Part shown: one piece after another, positions 5,089 through 37,005 of the stretch
Layout of the letters: each line of letters opens with the position of its first letter
Position numbering within the stretch: the stretch's first letter is position 1
Assembly (NCBI GenBank): GCA_000146465.1
Contig: CP001952.1
DNA length: 64,000 nucleotides
Strand: one strand, 5' to 3'
Program-made: the position numbers and the translations under genes
Notes under the pieces: generated by a model
Told to the model about the DNA's origin: nothing
The model's input: only the letters and a program-made list of their open reading frames with translations
Databases searched by the model: none

Positions 5089-5160
5089 GCATTGATAGTA
5101 TAGTGGTTATTATGTGAGCTTCCCAAGCTCATGGCCCGGGTTCGATTCCCGGTCAATGCA
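5089..5160 (+). tRNA. tRNA-Gly (anticodon CCC)
   Basis: GCATTGATAGTATAGTGGTTATTATGTGAGCTTCCCAAGCTCATGGCCCGGGTTCGATTCCCGGTCAATGCA. Acceptor stem GCATTGA/TCAATGC, anticodon stem TGAGC/GCTCA with loop TTCCCAA, T-arm CCGGG-TTCGATT-CCCGG, discriminator A. Near-identical in layout to eukaryotic tRNA-Gly-CCC. Followed by TTTT. Confidence 0.9.
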
Positions 5161-7142: not shown

Positions 7143-8420
7143 CCAATGGAGGACATAAGATTTATTTAACCATGAAGCCTTCGATCCCGCGGGCCTCATC
7201 AGGAATAACTCCGAAACTCTTTTGATGTCCTCAAGAACCACCTTTCCCCCCCTTTTGCTTGCCCTCAGGCTAGATATTGTCAGCAAGTTCATAGAGTATC
7301 TCAGCCCAGATTCCTCGGAGATCGAAACAAGGGCATCCACAGCACTGCCGTCGATGAGAACATCCTCCTCGAGTATTCTGTGTCTGATGATTGCTTCGAG
7401 ATCTTCTCGGTTGTATTTCTCCATAGAAATGATCAAGGCACGGTCAATAAAGTCTTTTGGCATTCCATAGGGACTTGTCTCGTCGGTTCCCTTTATCACA
7501 CACTCCTTCTTGTTGGTTGAAACGAGGATCACTGGGCAGAAGTCCTCCTCGATCGCCTTGTTTAGAAAGGCAAAGCTTTCGATGTCAAGCATGTGAACCT
7601 CGTCTATAAACAAAACTCCTCGGACCACCTCAGCCTTTCCCTCATTGATCCAGTTCCATACCTTCTTGTTCACTTCATCCCTTGTCTCTGTTCGAATTTC
7701 CCCCGTTTCTCCACTGAAAAGAGCAAGGTATCCTTCAGCCTTGTTGTTTATAACATCGATGTCATGAAGAGATATCTCTTGAATCTCCTCTCGGATCTTT
7801 ATCAATTCCCCCTCAGGACAAGGAACAAACCGTGCATCCATCCCTACCATCTCATTCTTCTTCACCATGCTCGTTCCAATCTTATACACTCTTCCTCTCT
7901 CCTTGATAATCCTTATAACATCCCCGGCGCTTACCTTCTCCTTATCAAGCTCATTCCTCATCTTTTCTCCTATGTCAAACGAAGACTCCATATCAACAGT
8001 CTTGAGAACAATTCTCCTTCCACTCAAGCTCACAACTTCTCCTTCAATCGTCCGCACAGACTCCTTAATCCTTAGCCCAACAGACTTCCGAAGAGCCTGG
8101 GTAATAGCCTCGGACTTACTCATCTCCAGACTATATATCTCTGTCCCGCTGATCGAGTTAAAATGCACTCCCCCTAGGCTTTTCGATAGTCCTATTGCCA
8201 ATGCGGTCTTTCCACTTCCTCGGTCTCCCTTAATCAGAACTATCTTTCCCCCTTTGTTGCTCTCCACCATCTTTCTTATAAGCACCATCGCCTTCCTAGC
8301 CTTAACCTGTCCAACCAGTCCATCCTTGTTGTACTCAACCTCATCCTCATTGCATCCAAGCCCCACAATGTGTGAGTGGAGACTGATTCTATTCACTGTC
8401 CCAACATCTCGGACCTCCAT
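6990..8420 (-). CDS. RVB2: RuvB-like helicase 2 (Rvb2/Reptin)
   Basis: ISGTEIYSLEMSKSEAITQALRKSVGLRIKE matches RUVBL2 [31 protein letters not shown]. Walker A GDRGSGKTALA. Track start 8456 is GTG; ATG at 8420 (MEVRDVGTVNRISLHSH). The C-terminal 50 aa are non-homologous and antisense to the PMS1 3' end. Confidence 0.85.
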   Translation of the reverse strand: MEVRDVGTVNRISLHSHIVGLGCNEDEVEYNKDGLVGQVKARKAMVLIRKMVESNKGGKIVLIKGDRGSGKTALAIGLSKSLGGVHFNSISGTEIYSLEMSKSEAITQALRKSVGLRIKESVRTIEGEVVSLSGRRIVLKTVDMESSFDIGEKMRNELDKEKVSAGDVIRIIKERGRVYKIGTSMVKKNEMVGMDARFVPCPEGELIKIREEIQEISLHDIDVINNKAEGYLALFSGETGEIRTETRDEVNKKVWNWINEGKAEVVRGVLFIDEVHMLDIESFAFLNKAIEEDFCPVILVSTNKKECVIKGTDETSPYGMPKDFIDRALIISMEKYNREDLEAIIRHRILEEDVLIDGSAVDALVSISEESGLRYSMNLLTISSLRASKRGGKVVLEDIKRVSELFLMRPAGSKASWLNKSYVLHWLYLCLIQYHERRPSVRTLPRPVQDAQAPYYPLHVRCRKSVAYHYACSTCL

Positions 8421-25646: not shown

Positions 25647-28184
25647 TCATTGGGGCCTTACAGAATAGACATAGTCGGAAATTCGGACTCCTTCCCCCTC
25701 CTCGGAGACATGGCTGCATCTTACCCTGATGGGGTCCTCGGTCTCCCTCATCAGAAGAATCTTTGTTAATGCATGCACAAAGTTCGACTGAATAAATCGT
25801 TTCAACAGCCGAGCCCCGTATGTCGAGGAATATGCCTTTTCAATCACATCGTCCTTCACTCTATCCGAGATCTCAAACGATATCCCCTTCTCGTCCAGCT
25901 TCTTCCTCAGCTGACCCATCTGATACTCAAGAATCTTGTACATGCTTTCTCTATCAAGATTATTGAAGTATATCACATTGTCAATGCGATTGACAAGAGG
26001 TGGCCCAAACCGGTTCAGCACCAATCTTTCAATTTCTTTTCTGTCTTCATCTCTAAGCTCTGGAGACCTCATCATTATTTCTTGGCCTAGGTTGGAGGTC
26101 ATAATCAGTACACAGTTCCTGAAGTCCACAACCGTCCCTTTTCCATCCGTAACACGTCCCTCGTCCAAGAGCTGGTATAGCACATTCAGAACTGTTTGGT
26201 GTGCCAAGTCCACCTCGTCCAATAAAATCACGTTGTAGGGCTTGTTCTTGATGGGCTCTGTGAGAGCTCCTCCTTCATTGTATCCTACATATCCTGCAGA
26301 TGCTCCAATTAGCTTGGTTATACTCATTTCATTTCCATAGTCGCTCATATCAAGCACAAGCATGTTCTTCTCGTCGTCAAACAACTCCATTGCAACTGCC
26401 TTGGCAAGCTCTGTCTTTCCAACCCCTGTAGGCCCAAGAAGAAGGAAAGCTCCAATCGGCTTATCCTCTCTGCTCAGTCCCACTCTGGATTGCAAGATAG
26501 AATCTACAATCGAATCCACTGCATGCCCCTGCCCAAATATCCGTCTCTTTATTCGAGAGCTCATCTCCATAAGCCTCTCATTCTCTTTAATGGTTAACCT
26601 CTTCACAGGAATTCCTGTCCATCTGCTTATGACCTCGGCAATGTTCACAGGAAGAATTACTTCTACACTCTCGAGTCTCTTGAGCTCACTCTCAATCACA
26701 GGAATCACATTCATCTTAAGGTCATATGCAACATATGTGTCTCTCTCAGCTTGGGCTAACCTCAGCTTAGTATCCTCCAACCTCTTCTTTAGCTTCTTGG
26801 CCTCGATCACATGTCTTTTCTCCTTCAGATATGCCTCTTCCATCGGCTCTATACTTCTCTTTACCTCTTCTATCTTTTCAACCACGTTCTCCAGCCTCTT
26901 CATTGTATGCTCGTCCTTTTCCCTTGCAAGATCAATTTCTAAGCTTGCCTTTTCAAGCTCCAAAGACCATGCCTTCGACCTTGCATTCAGAATCTCTTGC
27001 GGCTCGCTTTCTAGTGCTATCACTGCACTGGCACATGCCGTGTCCACCAAGTCAATTGCTACATCGGGAAGTCTTCTGTTCGAAATGTATTTCTTCGATG
27101 AGTTTGCTGCATACACAAGAGCATTGTCAGCTATCTTAACTCCATGATATGCCTCCAATCTTTCTCTAAGCCCCCGCAGCATCGTAATCGAGTCCTCGAT
27201 CGATGGCTCATTCACAACAACCTGCACAAATCTTCTCTCAAATGCAGGATCCTTTTCAACATACTTTCTGTACTCATCATGTGTTGTTGCCCCAATGCAT
27301 TTGATCGTCCCGGCTGCAAGCCCAGGCTTGAGCATGTTTGCTGCATCCATTGCCCCATCAGTCTTCCCGGCTCCCAACACAATGTGGATCTCGTCAATAA
27401 ACAGAATCACCCCTGGCGTTGTTTCAGCCTCCTTGACTAGACTCTTCAATCTCTCCTCAAAATCTCCTCTGTGTGCTGTTCCTGCAACCATCGACCCAAC
27501 ATCCACATTGTAGATCCTTGCATTCTGGAGAGTGGGTGCCTCGCCGTTCGCTATCAGCTGTGCGATCCCATTCACTATGGCTGTCTTTCCAACCCCCGGC
27601 TTTCCAACCAGTATTGCATTGCTCTTTGTCTTTTTCGACAGGATCTCAATGACCTGTCTTATCTCCTCATCTCTTCCAATCACAGGATCAAAAACATTCT
27701 GCCGTGCTTGCTCAACCATATCAACAGCAAATTTCGACATTGCATTTGTCGCATCGTCGGAATTTCGGGAATCAAATCTTTTGTTCTTCGTCTGCTCCTC
27801 AACTCTCTTCTTTATGTCTTCGGAATTGATGAGCAGCTCCTTGATACTTTTGACTGAAAGAAGCTGAAGCACCAATGCATTTACAGAGACATATCCATCT
27901 CCCCCCTTCTCGGCTGCCGCTAGAACCCTTGCAAGTGCTTCCCCAACCCGTGGCTCCGTACAGTTGTACTGCTTTGCAAAGCCTCCTATCTTTTTTATAA
28001 GTGCATTTTTAATGTCGTTCCTCTCAGTAGGGTTCAACACACTGTACAACACAGATGTCTGATCGTTCAGTATTACCTTCAGGAGATGCTCGGGCTCAAC
28101 AACATTGTTGCTATTTGCAATTGCCTCCTCCAGACACCCCCTTAAAGCGTTCTGTGCTCGCTCCGTATACCTCTTTGCATTCAT
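25647..28184 (-). CDS. HSP104: Hsp104/ClpB-type AAA+ disaggregase
   Basis: ClpB N-domain, then two AAA modules ILVGKPGVGKTAIV and FLLLGPTGVGKTELAK with a coiled-coil middle domain. 845 aa, no presequence. Confidence 0.9.
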   Translation of the reverse strand: MNAKRYTERAQNALRGCLEEAIANSNNVVEPEHLLKVILNDQTSVLYSVLNPTERNDIKNALIKKIGGFAKQYNCTEPRVGEALARVLAAAEKGGDGYVSVNALVLQLLSVKSIKELLINSEDIKKRVEEQTKNKRFDSRNSDDATNAMSKFAVDMVEQARQNVFDPVIGRDEEIRQVIEILSKKTKSNAILVGKPGVGKTAIVNGIAQLIANGEAPTLQNARIYNVDVGSMVAGTAHRGDFEERLKSLVKEAETTPGVILFIDEIHIVLGAGKTDGAMDAANMLKPGLAAGTIKCIGATTHDEYRKYVEKDPAFERRFVQVVVNEPSIEDSITMLRGLRERLEAYHGVKIADNALVYAANSSKKYISNRRLPDVAIDLVDTACASAVIALESEPQEILNARSKAWSLELEKASLEIDLAREKDEHTMKRLENVVEKIEEVKRSIEPMEEAYLKEKRHVIEAKKLKKRLEDTKLRLAQAERDTYVAYDLKMNVIPVIESELKRLESVEVILPVNIAEVISRWTGIPVKRLTIKENERLMEMSSRIKRRIFGQGHAVDSIVDSILQSRVGLSREDKPIGAFLLLGPTGVGKTELAKAVAMELFDDEKNMLVLDMSDYGNEMSITKLIGASAGYVGYNEGGALTEPIKNKPYNVILLDEVDLAHQTVLNVLYQLLDEGRVTDGKGTVVDFRNCVLIMTSNLGQEIMMRSPELRDEDRKEIERLVLNRFGPPLVNRIDNVIYFNNLDRESMYKILEYQMGQLRKKLDEKGISFEISDRVKDDVIEKAYSSTYGARLLKRFIQSNFVHALTKILLMRETEDPIRVRCSHVSEEGEGVRISDYVYSVRPQ

Positions 28185-28342: not shown

Positions 28343-28636
28343 TTACTGCTTCCTTAAGAGAGTAGGTGTCATAAATCCCATCATACACCCCAGAATGGAC
28401 AGAAGCACACGGTCCTGATTCTGGGACCTAGTGGCCATAGCCATAAACATAGGGATGAAGCTGTATATGAACAACGAGGGTATTGAGAAGATAGAGAGAA
28501 CAACCATTACCAGGGCCAAGGATGTATAGGCCACAAGAGGTGTTTCGTCCACATATTTCTCATAGTCCTCCTTCCGTATTTTACAACAGGAATCACTCAT
28601 TCTAGGGTAATAAATCTCTTGCCCCAAATTCTGCAT
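28343..28636 (-). CDS. Small hydrophobic membrane protein (97 aa, 2-3 TM), hypothetical
   Basis: TPLVAYTSLALVMVVLSIFSIPSLFIYSFIPMFMAMATRS...LLSILGCMMGFMTPTLL. Lies in a 450-nt gap between HSP104 and DPH5. Its ATG shares a CATG tetranucleotide with the DPH5 ATG. Confidence 0.25.
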   Translation of the reverse strand: MQNLGQEIYYPRMSDSCCKIRKEDYEKYVDETPLVAYTSLALVMVVLSIFSIPSLFIYSFIPMFMAMATRSQNQDRVLLSILGCMMGFMTPTLLRKQ

Positions 28637-29390
28637 GCTCTATCTAGTTGGATTCGGATTGCATTCGTACAAGGATATAACTCTCAGAGGATTGGAGGCT
28701 GCCAAGAGCAGCACAAGAGTGTATCTGGAGAACTACACATCAATCCATGGAGAACCGTTGGATGAGTTTGAAGAGCTTATAGGGAAGAAGGTATTCCTGG
28801 CAGACAGAGAGATGATGGAGCAAACCGACAAAATAGTTGATGAGTCCCTTGAAGAGGATGTCACCTTGCTTGTAGTGGGATCACCATTGTTCGCAACAAC
28901 TCACACAGACATAATCATAAGGGCGAAGGAAAAGGGAATAAGAGTCGAAGTTATTCACAATGCCTCCATAATAAACGTGTTGGGGTGCTGTGGGCTTTAT
29001 TCCTATACCTTTGGAAAGGTGGTGTCCATCCCGTACTTTGCAGGAAAATGGAGGCCGACAAGCTTCTACGACAATATAGTAAAGAACTATCAGAACAATC
29101 TTCACACACTATGTCTTCTGGACATTAAAGCTGACGAGCATAGGTTCATGAGCGTTAATGAGGCAATTGACCAGATCTTAGAAGCAGCCACCCTCACCGG
29201 CTCCTCGCTTATCAACGAAGACACAAGAATATTTGCAATCTGCAGGTTCGGATCTCCTACAGAAGAAGTTGCTTATGAAAGAATCGCCGACTTAAAACTG
29301 AGGTCTTTTGGAGACCCACTTCACTCCCTGATCATTCCTGCCAAGTTGGACAGAGTCGAGGAAGAACTGGTTGGTTCTCTGTTTGAATAA
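28635..29390 (+). CDS. DPH5: Diphthine synthase Dph5
   Basis: MLYLVGFGLHSYKDITLRGLEAAKSSTRVYLENYTS matches Dph5 [36 protein letters not shown]. ttgccccaaattctgcATG upstream. Confidence 0.85.
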   Translation: MLYLVGFGLHSYKDITLRGLEAAKSSTRVYLENYTSIHGEPLDEFEELIGKKVFLADREMMEQTDKIVDESLEEDVTLLVVGSPLFATTHTDIIIRAKEKGIRVEVIHNASIINVLGCCGLYSYTFGKVVSIPYFAGKWRPTSFYDNIVKNYQNNLHTLCLLDIKADEHRFMSVNEAIDQILEAATLTGSSLINEDTRIFAICRFGSPTEEVAYERIADLKLRSFGDPLHSLIIPAKLDRVEEELVGSLFE

Positions 29391-29457: not shown

Positions 29458-32400
29458 TTAATGAGCTATTTGTCCTGTGAATCCTGTGGCTGGAAGCTGT
29501 GGGGTTCCTGTGGTTGGTACGTTAGCGCCTGGGAACGAATAGGAAAGCCCATTCATTGTATGGTCGGGTTGCCCGGGCTGAACTTGTCTTGTAAATGTAT
29601 TGCTTGTGGCCGGAGATGCCTTAACTTCAGGCTTCAACGGGTTTTGTTGGCTGCTTGGTACCCCGGACCCCGGAATCTGGCCAGCCCCTGTGTTACTTGC
29701 CGTTCCCGTCCTCCCTGGAGTGGAAGATGCTCCTGCTTGGACTCCAGTTGAATTCTTTGTTGGGGTTGGAGTTACGGTTGGGTTTCCTTTGAACTTGACC
29801 TCCCCAAGAACTTGTGTCTTTCTAGGGTCGTTTGGTACAGATACAGAAATCTCAGTTGTTCCTGTAGGTGTCTTCTTGGTTTCAATCTGCTCAACGCTCT
29901 TCAGATTGGGAACAATCATCTGCTCTAGTATCTCTCCGCCAACTGTGTTAGGCTGGTGGGTCACCGTCGATATGTTGTTGAATATCATCTCGGTGATCGA
30001 CCCGACGTTGGTCTTGCTGTCAGGTAAAATGTTAGTTATCTGGCTATAGAAGTTTGTTCCTGTGATGTCTTTACGAGCTTCTGGAGATGCTTCGTTGTAG
30101 CTTATCATTTCCTTAATTGTAGAGTCTGGAAGCTGAGAAATCATGTTGAGGAACGTTTCTGTAGAAATGTTCATCCCTTTGGCATAGCTCTCAGCCTTAC
30201 TTATGATGTTGTTCCTGACCTGAGACTCAGTGCTGGTCGAGGTTGAAATGTGTTCGCTGATCAACTCCTTGTTGTACTCGTCGACTATTGCTGCCTTCTC
30301 TCCATCAATCTTTCCGTTGAATACATTCTTCTTGGCCACCTCATTTCCGTTCCCTGACTTTTGAATCTCGGAAAGCACATTACTTATGAAAGTCTCCTCA
30401 GATCCTTTCACCGAGTCGGTTACTGCCATGTCCAATGGAACGTCCGGGGATTTCTTCTTAAGCTCCTCGCTGACTGCTCCAACAGTCGAAGACCCAACAC
30501 TATTAAGACTCTCGATTGCCTGGTCCATCGTCATTATCTCGGGAACTCCATATGGAGAGGAAATCTCAACAAACTTGCTTCCATCAGGGTTTGTATAAAC
30601 CTCTGTTGTGATCCCTTCTAGGTTCTTTGCTTTCTTCTCTTCCTCAACTCTGGCCTTCATCTCAGAAGCTGCTGCAACCTCGCTTTCGTGAGCCAGCCTT
30701 CCATTAATCATCGGCCTCATTTCCTTTACAAATTCGTTCCATGGCGTCTGTATAAGCTCTCCATCCTCAATATCCAGCTCAGATGCCGATCCAATGTTTA
30801 AGCTCTTCTTTCCATCAGTCATCGTAGATGGAGGAACGGGATCAAGAGGAGATGGAAGAGGTAGGACAAATCCATCCACATTTGCCTCGTAGTATCCAAC
30901 ACCCTTATCGAGCTCGGGTCTCTCTCCTGTGTTGTACTGGTGTTCAAGTAGCGAGGTGTCCAGTTTCTGGTTCTCCATCAATTCCTTTGTTCCTTCAGGG
31001 AAGATAACCTTCCCTTTGTTCACCTTCAATGCCTTTGCTGCCTCAGAGATATGCACTGCTCCATTCTCCATCTCAATGACATTCAATCCACTCTCAACAG
31101 CTGTCCCAACAACCTTGTTTCTCACTTGATTCCTTCTGTTCTTCTGTCTGCTCTGTACAATCACTTCCTCTTCAGACTTTGGCTCTTCATTACTGAATCC
31201 CTTCAGAGGAAGTTTTACTTTTCCATCGGAAATCCCAATTCTGCTGGTGGTTGGAGGAATAATTTCCTTAACATTGAGGTTCGATGTAGAAGTCTCTTTC
31301 CTTAGTGCCTCAATGTTTGATTGGTGTGCCATCTCCTCCTCATACTTCTTGTTCAGCTCCTCAAGGTTCGATCCAACAACATTAAGTCCGGCATGTGCTG
31401 TAGCCATGTGATCGACAGCCTCTTGGATCGAGTCGTTCATTCCCATCGGCCCCAGCATCTTCATCACCTCCTCCTTTCTAACCTCTCTTTCATGGTTCAA
31501 TGTCTCCTCTGTTATCTTCTCTGCCTCTTCCCGTGCCTTTTCGGCCTGCATTATGTCTCCAGTGCTCTCGAAAACCTTTGTAAATGCACTCTTTCCCTCA
31601 TTGTTGATGATCTCCTGTTCTGCTGCTTTTGCAAGATGCTCCTCTGCCTCCTTTACTGCATTGTTCTCGTTGGCTTCCTTCTGCACTCTTATAGCCTCGT
31701 TTTGCATCTCTTCGTTCCTACGATTCATCTCCTCAATTGCCTTTTCGGTGGAAACCTTCGAAAGGAAGTTCAGAGCATTTGTCTTTCGCCCTCTCGGCTT
31801 GAGCTGTGCCTTGGCATTCTCCAGGTTCTCATGTGCCTTTGCAAGATCTTCTGCACTCGAAATCGCCACATCTGTCAGAATCTTCTCCTGAACAACAGGG
31901 TTCGACAACCCCTCAACACTTGCTGCTTCCTTCAATGCCGCCGCCTGGCTGAGCTTCTGAAGCGCCCTGTTAATAGGCTCGGTTATATGGACCTTAGAGA
32001 GGTAATCGCTTATGTCTCGTGCCCGTTCAAGTCTCTTCTCGTTAATCTCTTCCTCCTTCTTCTTCAGAGCCTTGGGCCGAAGTCCACTAGGTGTCCTTAC
32101 TATTTCCCTTGCGTTCTTCTCCTCAATCAAAGACCTATCTTCTGCACTTTGTGCTGCTGTTTGCCCTCCTCCGGCAATTGCTGCAGACCTGGTTGCATGC
32201 TGGTAATTGAGATCTGCTAGGCTCATGGCCTTTGCATATGCAACCTCCGGAGACAGACCACTTGCCAAAGCTTCATTGTACTTATCAATCAAAAATCCTG
32301 CTTGATAGGCTTCAAACCCTGCTTTTTCCTCAGGAGATCCCTTTTCGATATATTTCTCATACACACTCTTCACAAGCATATCCCTGTCTGCTTCAGAAAC

Positions 32401-33228
32401 AACATCCTTAGAATTTACTATCTTAGCAAGTTGAGCCTGAGGAATATAAGAAGGATTCACTAGTGGCTGAGAAATCGTATTTGCCCTCTTTTTCCTCAGT
32501 GCCTTTTTGGCATTGGCATCTTTAATCTCATCTGCAACACCCTGTGCAACAGGTACAGAATGCCCCATTAGAACCAACGAGGAATATGCATTTTCAGGAA
32601 TTTCATCATCTATTGGACTTTCGTTATAGGTCAGAGCGTTGATCTCTGCCTGCTCTTTGTTGGTCCTTCCAGTGGCCACTCCACCCGAGAAATATGTTTC
32701 TTCAGGGTTGGAATAGTCCGGTGGTGTCTCCACAGAAACAAGCTCCGACTCCAACGGTGCAACAGTGGCCGGCCTTGCACTTGGGCTTCCAAGAATAGAA
32801 CTCTCCACATCCTCTGCAACATCCGGTGTTATGGAACCGTCGTTGTAAAGCATATCAAGAGCATCGAGGTTTCCGTGAGCTGCCATGTTTGCAAGATCCT
32901 TTTCTTCATGGGACAGGTTCTCCGGATTGTTTCCATGACTGTTGATCATGTTCCGAAGTATCTTCTCATGGTTTTTATTATGAGGCTTGATGCTTCCTCC
33001 ATATTTCCTATGGCCTCCCTTATGATGGGTACGATGAACACGACGATTGCTATCGTCATCGTGGCGGCTATGAACCTTCATCTTAATACGGGCGTTGCGG
33101 GTAGATCTATTTCCATAGTCCATCCCCTTTCCTGTATTTGCTTCTTTGCTGCGATGGATGGCATCAGGGCTTACCTTGGTTTCACTCCGCACCTCCATGT
33201 TGTAGAGACAAAGTAGAAACAGTAGCAT
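29458..33228 (-). CDS. PTP3: Giant secretory protein, probable polar tube protein 3 (PTP3)
   Basis: 1256 aa. Hydrophobic leader MLLFLLCLY, which contains the only Cys. Basic His/Lys/Arg-rich N-terminal ~90 aa, long acidic Glu/Lys-rich predicted coiled-coil core, and a Pro/Thr/Gly/Ser-rich neutral-basic C-terminal tail. The CDS is certain; the PTP3 identity is an inference from architecture, length and the PTP3-Sec13-EF2 neighbourhood. Confidence 0.5.
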
Positions 33229-33450
33229 GCGTTCGTGTCATTTTCCCACTAGGTATTTAAATATTTTTCCTAAAACGCTTTCCCGACAATGTTTCGAAAA
33301 CTAGAGGTCATGCCCAATCGTCTGAGATAGACTCCTCTTCTAGCCTGATTATTTCCTCTCATTGGACATGGATGAAACGGACTCAGGCCTCTTGTGTAGG
33401 AGGGGAAATTGCTTCAAATATAAACATCCCAGCAAACAAATTAAATTTAT

Positions 33451-34269
33451 TCAACTCTCAATCTTCTTGAGACCCACTTCTTTGAACTCTCCACTACTGT
33501 CGGGCACAAAACACTTGAATCGGGAGTCTCCATATCCAACACTGAGACTAAATCCAGAAAAGCTCCAGGAAAGGCTATAGCATGGCTCATCCAGGACAAT
33601 CTTCTGCAATTTGTATTCTCCTTCATTTCTAGTGTAGATCATTACAGTGCCGTCTTCAGAACAGCTTGCCATGCAAAACAGCTTGAAGGAATTCGGCGGG
33701 CAGACAGAAACATCTCTTACAAATCCCTTATGATCCCTAAACCGTGCAACCTCTTCGCTTCCTTCCCACACTGCCACAGAGTAATCCATTCCTCCACTTA
33801 CAAACCCGTTTTCCGTAGCACTGACACATGAAACCCCAAACCGGTGGCTGAAGATCTCTGACTCTGTTACGCCAAAGGAGGAATCAACTGCTAGGACCCT
33901 TACATTTCCATCCGAACACCCACAGAACAAGGTAAACGAGCCTCCGTTCCATCTTCCCGAAATGTCGTTTACCGATCCATTAAGAAGCTGCTTTTCATAC
34001 TTCTTGTTGAACTTCCCGTTCTCATACTTCCAAACAATGACCTTCCCGCTGAAGTAAGATGATGCAATAAACTCACCTTGATTTAGAAAAATCGCTTTTG
34101 TTGCCGGGCCCGAGTTTCCATTCAGCTCCATCTCCAGAGCCAGGTTGTGAGGAGAGTCTGCAGTGCCCTTCGAAAAGACACGTACAATTCCATCGGAGCA
34201 CGACGTAACAATTTTCTTTTGGCTGAAGTCAGTCTCGATGCTATGGATAGTATCCTTGTGGATGTCCAT
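33451..34269 (-). CDS. SEC13: COPII/nuclear-pore WD40 protein Sec13
   Basis: HKDTIHSIETDFSQKKIVTSCSDGIVRVFSK / FIASSYFSGKVIVWKYENGKF / HKGFVRDVSVCP parallel Sec13 [31 protein letters not shown] / [21 protein letters not shown] / HSDWVRDVAWSP. agccccaATG upstream. Confidence 0.75.
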   Translation of the reverse strand: MDIHKDTIHSIETDFSQKKIVTSCSDGIVRVFSKGTADSPHNLALEMELNGNSGPATKAIFLNQGEFIASSYFSGKVIVWKYENGKFNKKYEKQLLNGSVNDISGRWNGGSFTLFCGCSDGNVRVLAVDSSFGVTESEIFSHRFGVSCVSATENGFVSGGMDYSVAVWEGSEEVARFRDHKGFVRDVSVCPPNSFKLFCMASCSEDGTVMIYTRNEGEYKLQKIVLDEPCYSLSWSFSGFSLSVGYGDSRFKCFVPDSSGEFKEVGLKKIES

Positions 34270-34452: not shown

Positions 34453-37005
34453 ATGGTAGATTTTCATATCAGCAAAGTTCACGAGCTTATGACGAACCAG
34501 AAGAACATCAGGAACATTTCTGTGATAGCACATGTCGATCACGGGAAAAGTACACTGACAGATTGTCTTGTGATCAAGGCAAAGATAGTTTCGAAGGATT
34601 CTGGAGGAGGCAGGTACATGGACTCTCGTGAAGACGAGCAGCAAAGAGGAATTACTATTAAGAGTTCGGCAATATCTCTGCATTTCCAGATTGAAAAGGA
34701 TGTTTTGGAAGCATATACAAAGAAGGAAGATACCAACGGAACCGAGTTTTTGATCAATCTAATTGACAGCCCAGGGCATATGGATTTCAGCAGTGAGGTT
34801 ACAGCAGCACTTCGAGTGACCGACGGGGCTCTTGTTGTTGTGGACTGTGTTGATGGAATTTGTGTGCAGACGGAAACGGTGCTTGGGCAAGCCATGGGAG
34901 AGAGAATAATTCCAACTCTTGTCCTCAACAAGCTCGACAGAGCTATTCTCGAGTTGGAGTATCCCCAAGAGAAGCTTGGAGAGGTTCTTAGGAGAAGGGT
35001 GGAGGGATTCAATGCCAAGCTCAGCACTCTAGGATACAACTTCAAGGTGGAGTCTCTGATGCCCGAGAAGAATGATATTTCGTTCTGTTCTGGACTACAG
35101 GGATGGGGATTTACCCTCAGGCATTTTGCAAGGTTCTATCTTGAGAAATTCAACATGAGTGGATTTGAGGGAGAAAAGAAGCTGACAAACTTCCTGTGGT
35201 CCCACAAGGTGTCCTGTACATCAGACGATCCGTTTGATCCAAACATCAAGCACATTGCCAAGCCTAATCCTGCACGATCTCCTTTTGTTGTGTATGTGTT
35301 AAATCCAATCTATAAAGTCAAGGACTTTTGCAACAACGGACAGATTGAGGAAATTAAGGAATACCTGAAATTCTATAAGGTAGACTTTAAGGGAGTTACA
35401 CTCACTGGAAGTGGAAAGTCTTTGTTCAAGGAGGTTATGAAGGCATGGCTTCCTGCAGCAGACTGCATCTTGGAGCAGATTGCGCTCAAACTTCCATCTC
35501 CGTTACAAAGCCAGAAGCTTCGATATGACTATCTATACGAAGGCCCAAAGGATGACGAGGTAGGAACTGCTATCATGAACTGTGATGCAAGCGAAGAAGC
35601 TCCGGTTACAATGTATGTCTCGAAGATGATTTCCTCAAACGACAACCGGTTCATAGCATTTGGAAGGGTGTTCTCTGGGAAGATATATCCAGGAATGAAG
35701 ATTAGGGTCCAAGAGCCGGGATATACACCGTTGCCAGAGGATTCTGAGGGATCCCCTCTGCTCCACATAAAGTCTGTCTTGAGAACTGTTGTTATGATGG
35801 GAAGGGGATACAAGGACGTGCCCAACTGTCCTGCCGGAAACATCATAGGGATTGTCGGGGTTGATGACTGTCTGAAGAAGACTGGAACCATAACAAACAG
35901 AAAGGACTCGTACAACATCCGATCGATGAAGTTTTCTGTGTCCCCAGTTGTTAAGGTGGCTGTCTCCACCAAAAGGCCAGAAGATCTTGGAAAGCTCCAG
36001 GAAGGGCTCAAAAAGCTTGCTCAGTCAGATCCTCTTTGCCTGGTCGAGAGAAATGACAAGGGCCAAAACACTATAGCTTGTGCAGGATCCCTACATCTCG
36101 AGATCTGCCTTAAGGATCTCCAAGATCAATATGCCAAGGTACCCATCATTTCCGAAGATCCGTTGGTGACATACTTCGAGGGCATATCATCCTCGATTAC
36201 AGAGCCTAAGATGACAAAGTCTGCAAACAAGCATAACAGAATTTACATGACTGTTGAACCACTCGAGGAGAAGATAGTTGACAATCTGAATGACGTCAAG
36301 TCCGACCAGATCAAGACAATGACAACCAACTTCCGAGAAATGCTTGACATAAGAGATGACTGGATCAAGAAGATATGGTGCTATGCACCCGAGATCAATC
36401 CCTTGAATCTTCTTGTGGATGGAACAAAGGGAATCTCTATCATCAACGAAATAAAGGAACACGTCAACACAGGATTCCGTGCAGCAGTCAATGACGGTCC
36501 ATTGATTGGAGAAGTCATGCGTGGACTTAAGTTTGAGCTCAAAGACGCAGTCCTCCACGCCGATGCAATCCACAGAGGTATCAACCAGCTGCTCCAGCCT
36601 GTGAAGAGTCTCTGCAAAGGACTCCTCCTTGCAGCAACCCCCATTCTCTACGAGCCAATATATGAAGTAGAGATAACCTCTCCAAACGACTTCTCCGGAG
36701 CTGCCACCACTATTCTTCTCTCGAAGAGAGGAACTGCAGAGGACTTCAAGACACTTCCTGGAAACGACACAACGATGATTACCGGGACTCTTCCTGTGAG
36801 GGAGTCCTTTACATTCAATGAGGACTTGAAGTCTAGGACCGGAGGAAAGGCCGGAGCATCCATGAGGTTCTCTCATTACAGCATCTTGCCCGGAAGCCTC
36901 GACGACCCAAATTCCTTGATGTTCAAGACCGTCGAAACTGTTAGGAAGCTCAAGAAAATGAACCCCGAGCCTCCAACAGCAGACTCCTTCTTCGACAAGC
37001 TTTAA
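34453..37005 (+). CDS. EF2: Translation elongation factor 2
   Basis: MVDFHISKVHELMTNQKNIRNISVIAHVDHGKSTLTD...; 850 aa, full G-domain plus domains II-V; diphthamide-region H present. Confidence 0.97.
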   Translation: MVDFHISKVHELMTNQKNIRNISVIAHVDHGKSTLTDCLVIKAKIVSKDSGGGRYMDSREDEQQRGITIKSSAISLHFQIEKDVLEAYTKKEDTNGTEFLINLIDSPGHMDFSSEVTAALRVTDGALVVVDCVDGICVQTETVLGQAMGERIIPTLVLNKLDRAILELEYPQEKLGEVLRRRVEGFNAKLSTLGYNFKVESLMPEKNDISFCSGLQGWGFTLRHFARFYLEKFNMSGFEGEKKLTNFLWSHKVSCTSDDPFDPNIKHIAKPNPARSPFVVYVLNPIYKVKDFCNNGQIEEIKEYLKFYKVDFKGVTLTGSGKSLFKEVMKAWLPAADCILEQIALKLPSPLQSQKLRYDYLYEGPKDDEVGTAIMNCDASEEAPVTMYVSKMISSNDNRFIAFGRVFSGKIYPGMKIRVQEPGYTPLPEDSEGSPLLHIKSVLRTVVMMGRGYKDVPNCPAGNIIGIVGVDDCLKKTGTITNRKDSYNIRSMKFSVSPVVKVAVSTKRPEDLGKLQEGLKKLAQSDPLCLVERNDKGQNTIACAGSLHLEICLKDLQDQYAKVPIISEDPLVTYFEGISSSITEPKMTKSANKHNRIYMTVEPLEEKIVDNLNDVKSDQIKTMTTNFREMLDIRDDWIKKIWCYAPEINPLNLLVDGTKGISIINEIKEHVNTGFRAAVNDGPLIGEVMRGLKFELKDAVLHADAIHRGINQLLQPVKSLCKGLLLAATPILYEPIYEVEITSPNDFSGAATTILLSKRGTAEDFKTLPGNDTTMITGTLPVRESFTFNEDLKSRTGGKAGASMRFSHYSILPGSLDDPNSLMFKTVETVRKLKKMNPEPPTADSFFDKL

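Follow-up and report, generated by a model that had tools for sequence, protein, structure and literature searches.

An Encephalitozoon Gene for Polar Tube Protein 3, Most Likely Eint_111330 of E. intestinalis: Homology, Synteny, Composition, and Domain Layout

Introduction

Microsporidia invade host cells with an apparatus in which polar tube protein 3 (PTP3) is a major component. The Encephalitozoon cuniculi protein has been characterized experimentally (Peuvel et al. 2002, as reported in PMC10931468, PMC10468886, PMC7040029, PMC10229552, and PMC10381864) and is described as a 1256-aa protein with an acidic core between basic termini and no Cys (PMC10381864 Table 2; PMC7040029 Table 3). For the family, a high molecular weight (>1100 aa) and an acidic overall pI have been used as the criterion (PMC10229552). 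In published work, orthologous PTP3 labels the whole tube, the tip excepted. Orthologues are soluble in SDS in the absence of DTT (PMC7040029; PMC10468886), and this solubility without a reducing agent indicates that they are not disulfide-linked into the tube. A cross-linked complex of PTP1, PTP2, and PTP3 has been reported together with a scaffold hypothesis (PMC7040029; PMC10468886), and in a V. necatrix pull-down PTP3 co-purifies with PTP2, PTP1, and ricin-B-lectin/PTP6-like proteins (PMC10931468). By cryo-ET, it was not possible to place a 137-kDa protein in the ~58 Å filament repeat (PMC11929483). The E. intestinalis gene, Eint_111330, is expressed at the sporoblast stage (PMC11972355), and in Nosema ceranae PTP3 has been used as an RNAi control target and as a LAMP diagnostic target (PMC10468886).

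Here, a 64-kb stretch of DNA, referred to as the window, was analyzed around an ORF that a sequence-only reading had called a probable PTP3. The homology, synteny, composition, and domain layout of the protein are demonstrated by the analysis itself. For Encephalitozoon, existing annotation and publications already cover the gene, its features, and its neighborhood, and no new biology is added to them.

Results

Identity and Neighborhood of the Gene

The ORF begins with ATG, comprises 1256 codons, and ends with a TAA stop at 29458-29460 on the minus strand (Table 1). With a computed mass of 137 kDa, a pI of 5.4, one Cys, and one Trp, the 1256-aa product has the size and acidity described for the family (PMC10229552), and its mass equals the ~137 kDa quoted in PMC11929483.

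Table 1. Coordinates of the PTP3 gene, its parts, and its neighbors in the window.
Feature	Coordinates	Strand	Evidence
Complete PTP3 coding sequence	29458..33228	-	ORF list, 71-74% full-length identity to annotated Encephalitozoon PTP3, 8-sequence alignment
Residues 1-15, short hydrophobic leader, putative signal peptide with the sole Cys (C7)	33184..33228	-	Hydropathy, conservation, closed upstream frame
Residues 16-75, basic His/Lys/Arg-rich, predicted disordered	33004..33183	-	Composition, AlphaFold2
Residues 76-146, small conserved helical domain with motif	32791..33003	-	AlphaFold2, alignment
Residues 147-175, acidic Pro-rich variable linker, insertion site in relatives	32704..32790	-	pI, gap-rich alignment
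Residues 176-650, Glu/Lys/Ala-rich, helix-rich	31279..32703	-	AlphaFold2 secondary structure, heptad score
Residues 651-900, family-wide conserved core, predicted beta-rich fold	30529..31278	-	39-sequence conservation, AlphaFold2
Residues 901-1150, disordered loop (about 912-941), helical domain (about 943-1094), beta hairpins	29779..30528	-	AlphaFold2
Residues 1151-1256, basic Pro/Thr/Gly/Ser-rich tail, poorly conserved	29461..29778	-	Composition, identity
5' intergenic region with conserved non-coding blocks, candidate ptp3 promoter	33229..33450	-	Five-species DNA alignment
Sec13 homologue, 272 aa, 5' neighbor of PTP3	33451..34269	-	PDB phmmer, synteny
Elongation factor 2 (EF2), 850 aa, syntenic	34453..37005	+	Pfam EF-G/EF2 domain set
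Diphthine synthase (DPH5), 251 aa, convergent, 3' side of PTP3	28635..29390	+	PDB phmmer, synteny

Proteins named "polar tube protein 3" in NCBI/UniRef are 74% (E. romaleae), 73% (E. hellem), and 71% (E. cuniculi) identical to this product, with 99-100% of the length covered, and an alignment of 8 sequences is collinear end to end. When residues 100-1150 were compared with 1.84e9 protein representatives (phmmer, single sequence, filter-free), only 48 clusters were retrieved, 20 of them with E<=1e-30. Ten of these clusters were looked up, and the seven that carry a name are all microsporidian: five are called PTP3 (V. necatrix, Nosema, T. hominis, and Tubulinosema), and two belong to unnamed proteins from Ordospora and Pancytospora. 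In phmmer, E values for the distant named PTP3s (Nosema, Vairimorpha, Trachipleistophora, and Tubulinosema) range from 9e-90 to 1e-32. A word-indexed homologue search, repeated with two alignment profiles, gave the same seven proteins each time and no distant members. A Pfam scan of the protein identified no family, and searching PDB sequences with a profile of the 8 sequences produced chance matches only (E of at least 0.55). Self-BLASTP revealed no internal repeats, and Tandem Repeats Finder reported only a trivial 15-nt match in the gene. Antisense ORFs within the gene, for example one of 299 aa at 31321-32220 on the plus strand, were taken to be spurious, the sense frame being the conserved one.

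The neighboring genes are those of other Encephalitozoon genomes. The top 20 PDB matches of the Sec13 neighbor are all Sec13 (best phmmer E 1.9e-27), EF2 is 90-92% identical to its E. cuniculi and E. hellem counterparts in the same position, and the best PDB match of DPH5 is a diphthine synthase (phmmer E 3.6e-60). The order EF2, Sec13, PTP3, DPH5, Hsp104 is identical in all four other genomes compared, namely E. cuniculi, E. romaleae, E. hellem, and a fourth relative. Sec13 and EF2 flank PTP3 in these genomes, as the sequence-only reading had stated for E. cuniculi chromosome XI. Their adjacency in the window is borne out by the Sec13 matches in the PDB and the Pfam domains of EF2; their description as downstream genes is not, since the higher coordinates lie upstream (5') of a gene on the minus strand.

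Taken together, the full-length homology (71-74% identity to the named Encephalitozoon proteins), the family search, the synteny, and the composition described below support the initial assignment of the ORF to PTP3. We put at roughly 95% the reading that the gene is the single-copy microsporidian PTP3 orthologue in an Encephalitozoon genome, most likely Eint_111330 on chromosome XI of E. intestinalis.

Leader and 5' Region

The only Cys of the protein is residue 7, located, as had been observed at the outset, within the hydrophobic leader MLLFLLCLY of the 1256-aa ORF. The hydropathy of residues 1-9 is 2.8, and F4, L6, and C7 do not vary among 8 species. The putative signal peptide has an h-region of only ~8-9 residues and is devoid of a basic n-region, and by the (-3,-1) rule its cleavage would follow V-R-S. 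This putative peptide is short and atypical, weak but not missing; for E. intestinalis PTP3, a SignalP probability of only 0.34 has been published (PMC11972355). An alternative start at Met11 was rejected because residues 1-10 are open and conservatively hydrophobic in 8 of 8 species and the frame further upstream is closed.

This closure was seen when 80 codons were read upstream of the ATG, which contain four in-frame stops. The first terminates the Sec13 ORF, and the remaining three interrupt the part that corresponds to a 47-aa N-terminal extension of E. cuniculi PTP3, which is annotated with 1304 aa in a newer assembly. Stops in the matching frame of the window suggest that the extension is probably non-coding, and the 1304-aa gene model of E. 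cuniculi probably starts 47 codons too early.

The same four stops indicate that the ptp3 5' region is non-coding. In a five-species DNA alignment, it contains an invariant GTTTTAGGAAAAATATTTAA at 33257-33276, corresponding to -48 to -29 from the PTP3 ATG, a motif with a single occurrence in the window; CGATTGG and TCCAAT are located further upstream. This strongly conserved block marks a candidate ptp3 promoter and is possibly useful.

Composition and Domain Layout

The mature part of the protein (residues 16-1256, 1241 aa) contains no Cys, which has a probability of about 4e-9 at 1.54% Cys, the frequency in seven neighboring genes. Relatives from Encephalitozoon, Nosema, and Vairimorpha also have a Cys-poor mature part, but this does not extend to every distant member of the family, where up to 23 Cys occur. 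Behind the leader, residues 16-100 are 23.5% K+R and 11.8% His, with a pI of 10.8. At the other end, residues 1151-1256 contain 13% P, 13% G, and 27% S+T and have a pI of 10.0; mean identity in this tail is 0.32, compared to 0.6-0.7 in the core. By analogy with A. algerae PTP3 (PMC10229552), the tail is a candidate O-glycosylation region. Segments over residues 101-1150 have pI values of 4.0-5.4 (4.05 for residues 101-175), interrupted by basic islands at residues 351-450 (pI 9.0) and 651-750 (pI 9.5).

Most of this layout had been anticipated by the sequence-only reading, which described a Cys-free mature part, a His/Lys/Arg-rich basic segment behind the leader, and a Pro/Thr/Gly/Ser-rich tail, and attributed the combination of an acidic core, basic ends, and 1256 aa to Encephalitozoon PTP3, in agreement with PMC10381864 and PMC7040029. 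The pI values by segment confirm basic ends and an acidic core; the two basic islands depart from that picture.

A full-length AlphaFold2 model from 8 sequences (pLDDT 50.5, pTM 0.24) was used for secondary structure only. The pLDDT stays <50 over all of residues 1-74, where block means are 24-32 as far as residue 70, and reaches 80-87 in helices at residues 85-146, where a run of invariant columns occurs at 107-127. One relative (P0007) has an insertion of about 100 aa in the linker that follows. Long predicted helices (381-438, 444-474, 484-556, 559-597, and 622-648) are confined to about residues 190-650, and the region from 176 to 650 is the only part of PTP3 that could be coiled coil. The heptad score, a crude home-made heuristic other than COILS or Marcoil, covers 14% of PTP3 and 36% of residues 350-650, compared to 83% of a tropomyosin control, and exceeds the 99th percentile of shuffled sequences only at 386-414, 490-535, and 597-656. 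By this score, PTP3 lacks the continuous heptads of the tropomyosin or myosin-rod type, which run for hundreds of residues unbroken by Pro or Gly, and residues 650-1150 are predicted to be globular.

In models based on a 39-sequence alignment, pLDDT is 80-95 over about residues 650-839, and block means are 76-91 over roughly residues 950-1090. The motifs LPLKGF, NTGER, GVGYY, and TPWx... form invariant or near-invariant columns at about residues 674-894 in the 39 PTP3 relatives. Comparison of the predicted folded domains with PDB structures returned no structural neighbor. The ~900 aa of coiled coil initially assigned to the protein is an overstatement: long helices are predicted only for about residues 190-650, the heptads there are patchy, and the remainder up to residue 1150 would form beta-rich and helical globular domains. 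The predicted folded, conserved core could guide structural work on the polar tube.

Discussion

By analogy with its orthologues, the PTP3 of the window would be localized along the tube, soluble in SDS, and able to interact with PTP1 and PTP2. The scaffold or ionic-bonding mechanism is a hypothesis from the literature and not a demonstrated one, and the cryo-ET result (PMC11929483) counts against it. In such a mechanism, the short N-terminal leader would take PTP3 into the secretory route, and the Cys-free mature protein would act as a non-covalent scaffold or outer-layer component. The ends, both basic and disordered (His-rich at the N-terminus, Pro/Thr/Ser/Gly-rich at the C-terminus), may bind acidic partners electrostatically, with acidic PTP1 and the acidic core of adjacent PTP3 molecules as candidates, and the long helices and the folded conserved core (about residues 650-1100) may supply length and specific contacts. 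The PTP3 layer would remodel during rapid tube eversion, which the proposed bonds would permit by being ionic and not covalent. A tentative extension, to which we give rather low odds, is that disorder and coiled coil do not make up most of PTP3. The folded segments at about 650-840 (beta-rich) and 943-1094 (helical) would then be the true core conserved in the family and could serve as polymerization or partner-binding units of the tube outer layer, and the recurrent His-rich basic N-terminus could be a pH- or metal-sensitive electrostatic latch released at germination.

The species call was derived from a published table that lists 1256 aa for both E. intestinalis Eint_111330 and E. cuniculi PTP3, and in which the lengths of the E. 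romaleae (1254 aa) and E. hellem (1284 aa) matches also recur (PMC7040029 Table 3). As the window protein shares no more than 71% identity with that of E. cuniculi, E. intestinalis remains. Length and the pattern of identities are the two grounds for this most likely assignment, no E. intestinalis sequence being among the matches retrieved and an exact look-up of the protein in the gene-position collection having returned no copy. Eint_111330, with the same listed length and a locus number in the chromosome XI series (PMC7040029 Table 3), is probably the same gene. The gene could instead be a PTP3 from another Encephalitozoon species, for example one still absent from the databases searched; relatives at 50-65% identity occur in Logan assemblies, which indicates that the genus is under-sampled. 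We regard this as improbable in view of a length of exactly 1256 aa, as listed for Eint_111330 (PMC7040029), and of the identity pattern. For PTP3, identity to E. cuniculi is slightly below that to E. romaleae and E. hellem; for EF2, where the comparison covered E. hellem only, it is likewise below that to E. hellem. Such a pattern would fit the place of E. intestinalis in the genus phylogeny.

Readings that question PTP3 itself fare considerably worse. Anncaliia algerae has a paralogue, PTP3b, that is 29% identical to PTP3 (PMC10229552), and the 48 family clusters differ widely in length and Cys content, so that a PTP3-like paralogue, which might occupy a different part of the tube, can be envisaged in place of a true orthologue. 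The full-length identity to Encephalitozoon PTP3s, the exact syntenic position in four genomes, and the retrieval of one protein per genome among closely related Encephalitozoon and allied species make this very improbable. The protein might, at the extreme, be a generic secreted or cytoskeletal coiled-coil protein that resembles PTP3 only through Glu/Lys-rich low complexity, as its helix-rich, Glu/Lys/Ala-rich region at 176-650 and the Pfam and PDB sequence searches would allow. However, the alignments are collinear end to end, the heptad signal is weak relative to tropomyosin, and the strongest conservation resides in specific motifs at 650-900 in 39 relatives, outside the Glu/Lys-rich helices; full-length identity, the family search, and these motifs effectively refute a merely compositional likeness.

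Among described proteins, E. cuniculi PTP3 (ECU11_1440, UniProt Q8MTP3) is a close counterpart: it is 71% identical from end to end and shares the length of 1256 aa when counted from MLLFLLCLY, the leader with a single Cys, the basic termini, the acidic core, the Cys-free mature part, and the flanking genes. The two differ in their low-complexity ends: an HHHHH run is present in E. cuniculi, and conservation of the C-terminal tail is only about 32%. At a greater distance, the PTP3s of V. necatrix (1354 aa, E 9e-90) and Nosema bombycis (1370 aa, E 3e-85) are collinear with the window protein over about 940 residues and share with it a Cys count of 0-2, enrichment in His at the N-terminus, and a basic C-terminus, although identity is only 27-29% and they are about 100 aa longer; V. 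necatrix has a true run of 7-8 His, whereas the His residues of the window PTP3 are scattered. PTP1 and PTP2 have no sequence relationship to PTP3, but they share its organelle and secretory route and are its partners in cross-linking and two-hybrid experiments (PMC10468886, PMC7040029). In contrast to these small (about 275-450 aa), Cys-rich proteins, which form a disulfide-bonded polymer and need a reducing agent for solubility, PTP3 is large, Cys-free, and soluble in SDS.

Identity and Genomic Setting

The 1256-residue open reading frame proposed to encode polar tube protein 3 (PTP3) from sequence alone proved to be real, and its assignment is supported by 74%, 73%, and 71% identity to the named PTP3 proteins of Encephalitozoon romaleae, E. 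hellem, and E. cuniculi, respectively, over 99–100% of length, together with a shared gene order. Four further relatives are 50–65% identical to the window protein. The E. hellem and E. romaleae matches have exactly the published lengths of 1284 and 1254 residues; the value reported for both E. cuniculi and E. intestinalis Eint_111330 is 1256 (PMC7040029 Table 3). Having this length yet only 71% identity to E. cuniculi PTP3, the window protein most likely belongs to E. intestinalis, although a look-up of its exact sequence gave no record. With residues 100–1150 as the query and no filter applied, phmmer retrieved only 48 relatives from among 1.84 billion cluster representatives. Ten clusters were looked up and seven were named, five as PTP3 (Vairimorpha necatrix, Nosema bombycis/pernyi, Trachipleistophora hominis, Tubulinosema); the other two are uncharacterised proteins from Ordospora and Pancytospora, both microsporidia. 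Neither a Pfam family nor a sequence relative in the PDB was found for the protein. Signal peptide apart, the defining features of the family were present wherever a clear test was possible. PTP3 is already annotated and characterised in Encephalitozoon and is, in this sense, already known.

Sec13 and EF2 adjoin the gene as the sequence-only reading had described, but they lie upstream of the minus-strand PTP3 rather than downstream. Sec13 accounts for all 20 top PDB matches of the 272-residue WD40 neighbor (best E 1.9e-27), and the 850-residue neighbor contains the EF2 domain set (Pfam), with 90–92% identity to E. cuniculi and E. hellem EF2, as expected between congeners. The order EF2, Sec13, PTP3, diphthine synthase, (small ORF), Hsp104 is common to three Encephalitozoon species (E. 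cuniculi, E. romaleae, and E. hellem) and a more distant relative assembled in Logan, and the window matches all four (Hsp104/ClpB, diphthine synthase, PTP3, Sec13, EF2), confirming the expected neighborhood. The diphthine synthase gene (DPH5) is two genes from EF2, its modification substrate, in 5/5 genomes examined, a proximity that may be a coincidence of a compact genome. ORFs antisense to PTP3 are most likely by-products of skewed composition, because the conserved frame is the sense frame.

Features of the window
Feature	Position	Strand	Remark
tRNA-Gly (CCC)	5089-5160	+	ARAGORN; only tRNA found in the window
Hsp104/ClpB	25647-28184		
Diphthine synthase (DPH5)	28635-29390	+	
PTP3	29458-33228	-	1256 aa
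ORFs within PTP3	31321-32220, 29600-30049, 31553-31891, 32875-33216	+	antisense; 102-299 aa
TATA-like element	33257-33276	-	29-48 nt 5' of the PTP3 ATG
Elongation factor 2 (EF2)	34453-37005	+	

Start Codon, Leader, and Upstream DNA

The frame opens at the first ATG past an upstream stop. A newer E. cuniculi assembly (GCA_027571585.1) carries a 1304-residue PTP3 model with 47 additional N-terminal residues, and one relative, P0004, has a similar extension. Both extensions correspond to stop-interrupted DNA at window 33229–33450 on the minus strand (7916–8141 in the syntenic locus L001). Within the window, the 80 codons of frame 5' of the ATG contain four stops: the first terminates the Sec13 ORF, and the remaining three interrupt the stretch equivalent to the E. 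cuniculi extension. Because these stops break the matching frame, the extension is probably a non-coding annotation error, and translation probably starts at MLLFLLCLY, which would give about 1256–1257 residues.

Leader residues F4, L6, and C7 are invariant in 8/8 close relatives. The hydrophobic run of this putative, atypical signal peptide spans just 8–9 residues and lacks a basic n-region; V13-R14-S15 is compatible with the (-3,-1) rule, and cleavage may occur there. The signal-peptide probability of E. intestinalis PTP3 is just 0.34, and low scores have been argued to be typical of microsporidian signal peptides (PMC11972355).

The non-coding DNA 5' of ptp3 is unusually strongly conserved across five species. 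It includes the invariant TATA-like 20-mer GTTTTAGGAAAAATATTTAA, which occurs once within the window, and, farther upstream, two CCAAT-type boxes: CGATTGG, some 100 nt from the ATG, and TCCAAT, some 140 nt from it. The conserved block is a candidate sporoblast-stage promoter.

Charge Layout and Fold

The whole protein has a pI of 5.4, a mass of 137 kDa, and one Trp. As had been noted, its sole Cys is residue 7, within the leader; at the 1.54% Cys pooled from seven neighboring genes, a Cys-free mature part of 1241 residues has a chance probability of about 4e-9. The His/Lys/Arg-rich segment behind the leader and the Pro/Thr/Gly/Ser-rich tail are both basic as described, with pI values of 10.8 for residues 16–100 (Lys+Arg 23.5%, His 11.8%) and 10.0 for residues 1151–1256. 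The intervening core is acidic, segments within 101–1150 having pI values of 4.0–5.4; sliding 100-residue windows reveal two basic islands inside it, at 351–450 and 651–750.

Among relatives, Cys scarcity (0–2) is a trait of Encephalitozoon, Ordospora, Nosema, and Vairimorpha PTP3s rather than of the whole family, distant members (P0015, P0017, P0031, P0038, P0041, and others) having 9–23. By contrast, basic C-termini are common across the family. N-termini rich in His are found in many relatives and are missing from others, some of which have only 0–4 His among their first 150 residues. In P0007, a relative from Logan, an insertion of ~100 residues with two Cys (columns about 209–322 of the eight-sequence alignment) falls in the acidic variable linker equivalent to about residues 147–175 of the window protein.

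The sequence-only reading had assigned about 900 residues to coiled coil, which was not borne out. With a simple heptad score and a cut-off at the 99th percentile of shuffled sequence, windows above the cut-off cover 14% of PTP3, 36% of residues 350–650, and 83% of a tropomyosin control. An AlphaFold2 model of residues 1–1200 from eight sequences, of low confidence (pLDDT 50.5), places long helices only between about 190 and 650. Coiled coil is thus possible for a patchy 300–450 residues at most. A second AlphaFold2 model (residues 640–1150, 39-sequence alignment, mean pLDDT 75.8) predicts a beta-rich domain at about 650–839 (pLDDT 80–95), followed by a helical domain at about 943–1094. Invariant or near-invariant columns among the 39 relatives at about 674–894 (LPLKGF, NTGER, GVGYY, TPWxEF, and one further motif) coincide with the confidently folded region. 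No tandem DNA repeats were found in the gene, and no internal repeats in the protein.

Comparison with Characterized PTP3 Proteins

E. cuniculi PTP3 is described as having basic termini around an acidic core, no Cys, and a signal peptide, with labeling over the entire tube (PMC10381864 Table 2); PTP3 has not yet been placed in the tube by cryo-ET (PMC11929483). In N. ceranae, ptp3 dsRNA reduces parasite load (PMC10468886). A simple model would have the basic, disordered ends of the Cys-free mature protein make ionic contacts that incorporate it into the tube, while the helices and folded core would provide reach and specificity. Such non-covalent bonding would permit the remodeling seen in tube eversion. 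E. cuniculi PTP3 is soluble in SDS without reducing agent (PMC7040029; PMC10468886). V. necatrix PTP3, purified via its natural His patch, co-recovers PTP2, PTP1, and ricin-B-lectin/PTP6-like proteins, the tip protein PTP4 being absent from the pull-down (PMC10931468). On cross-linking, a PTP1–PTP2–PTP3 complex is obtained, and PTP3 has been proposed to act as a scaffold (PMC7040029; PMC10468886).
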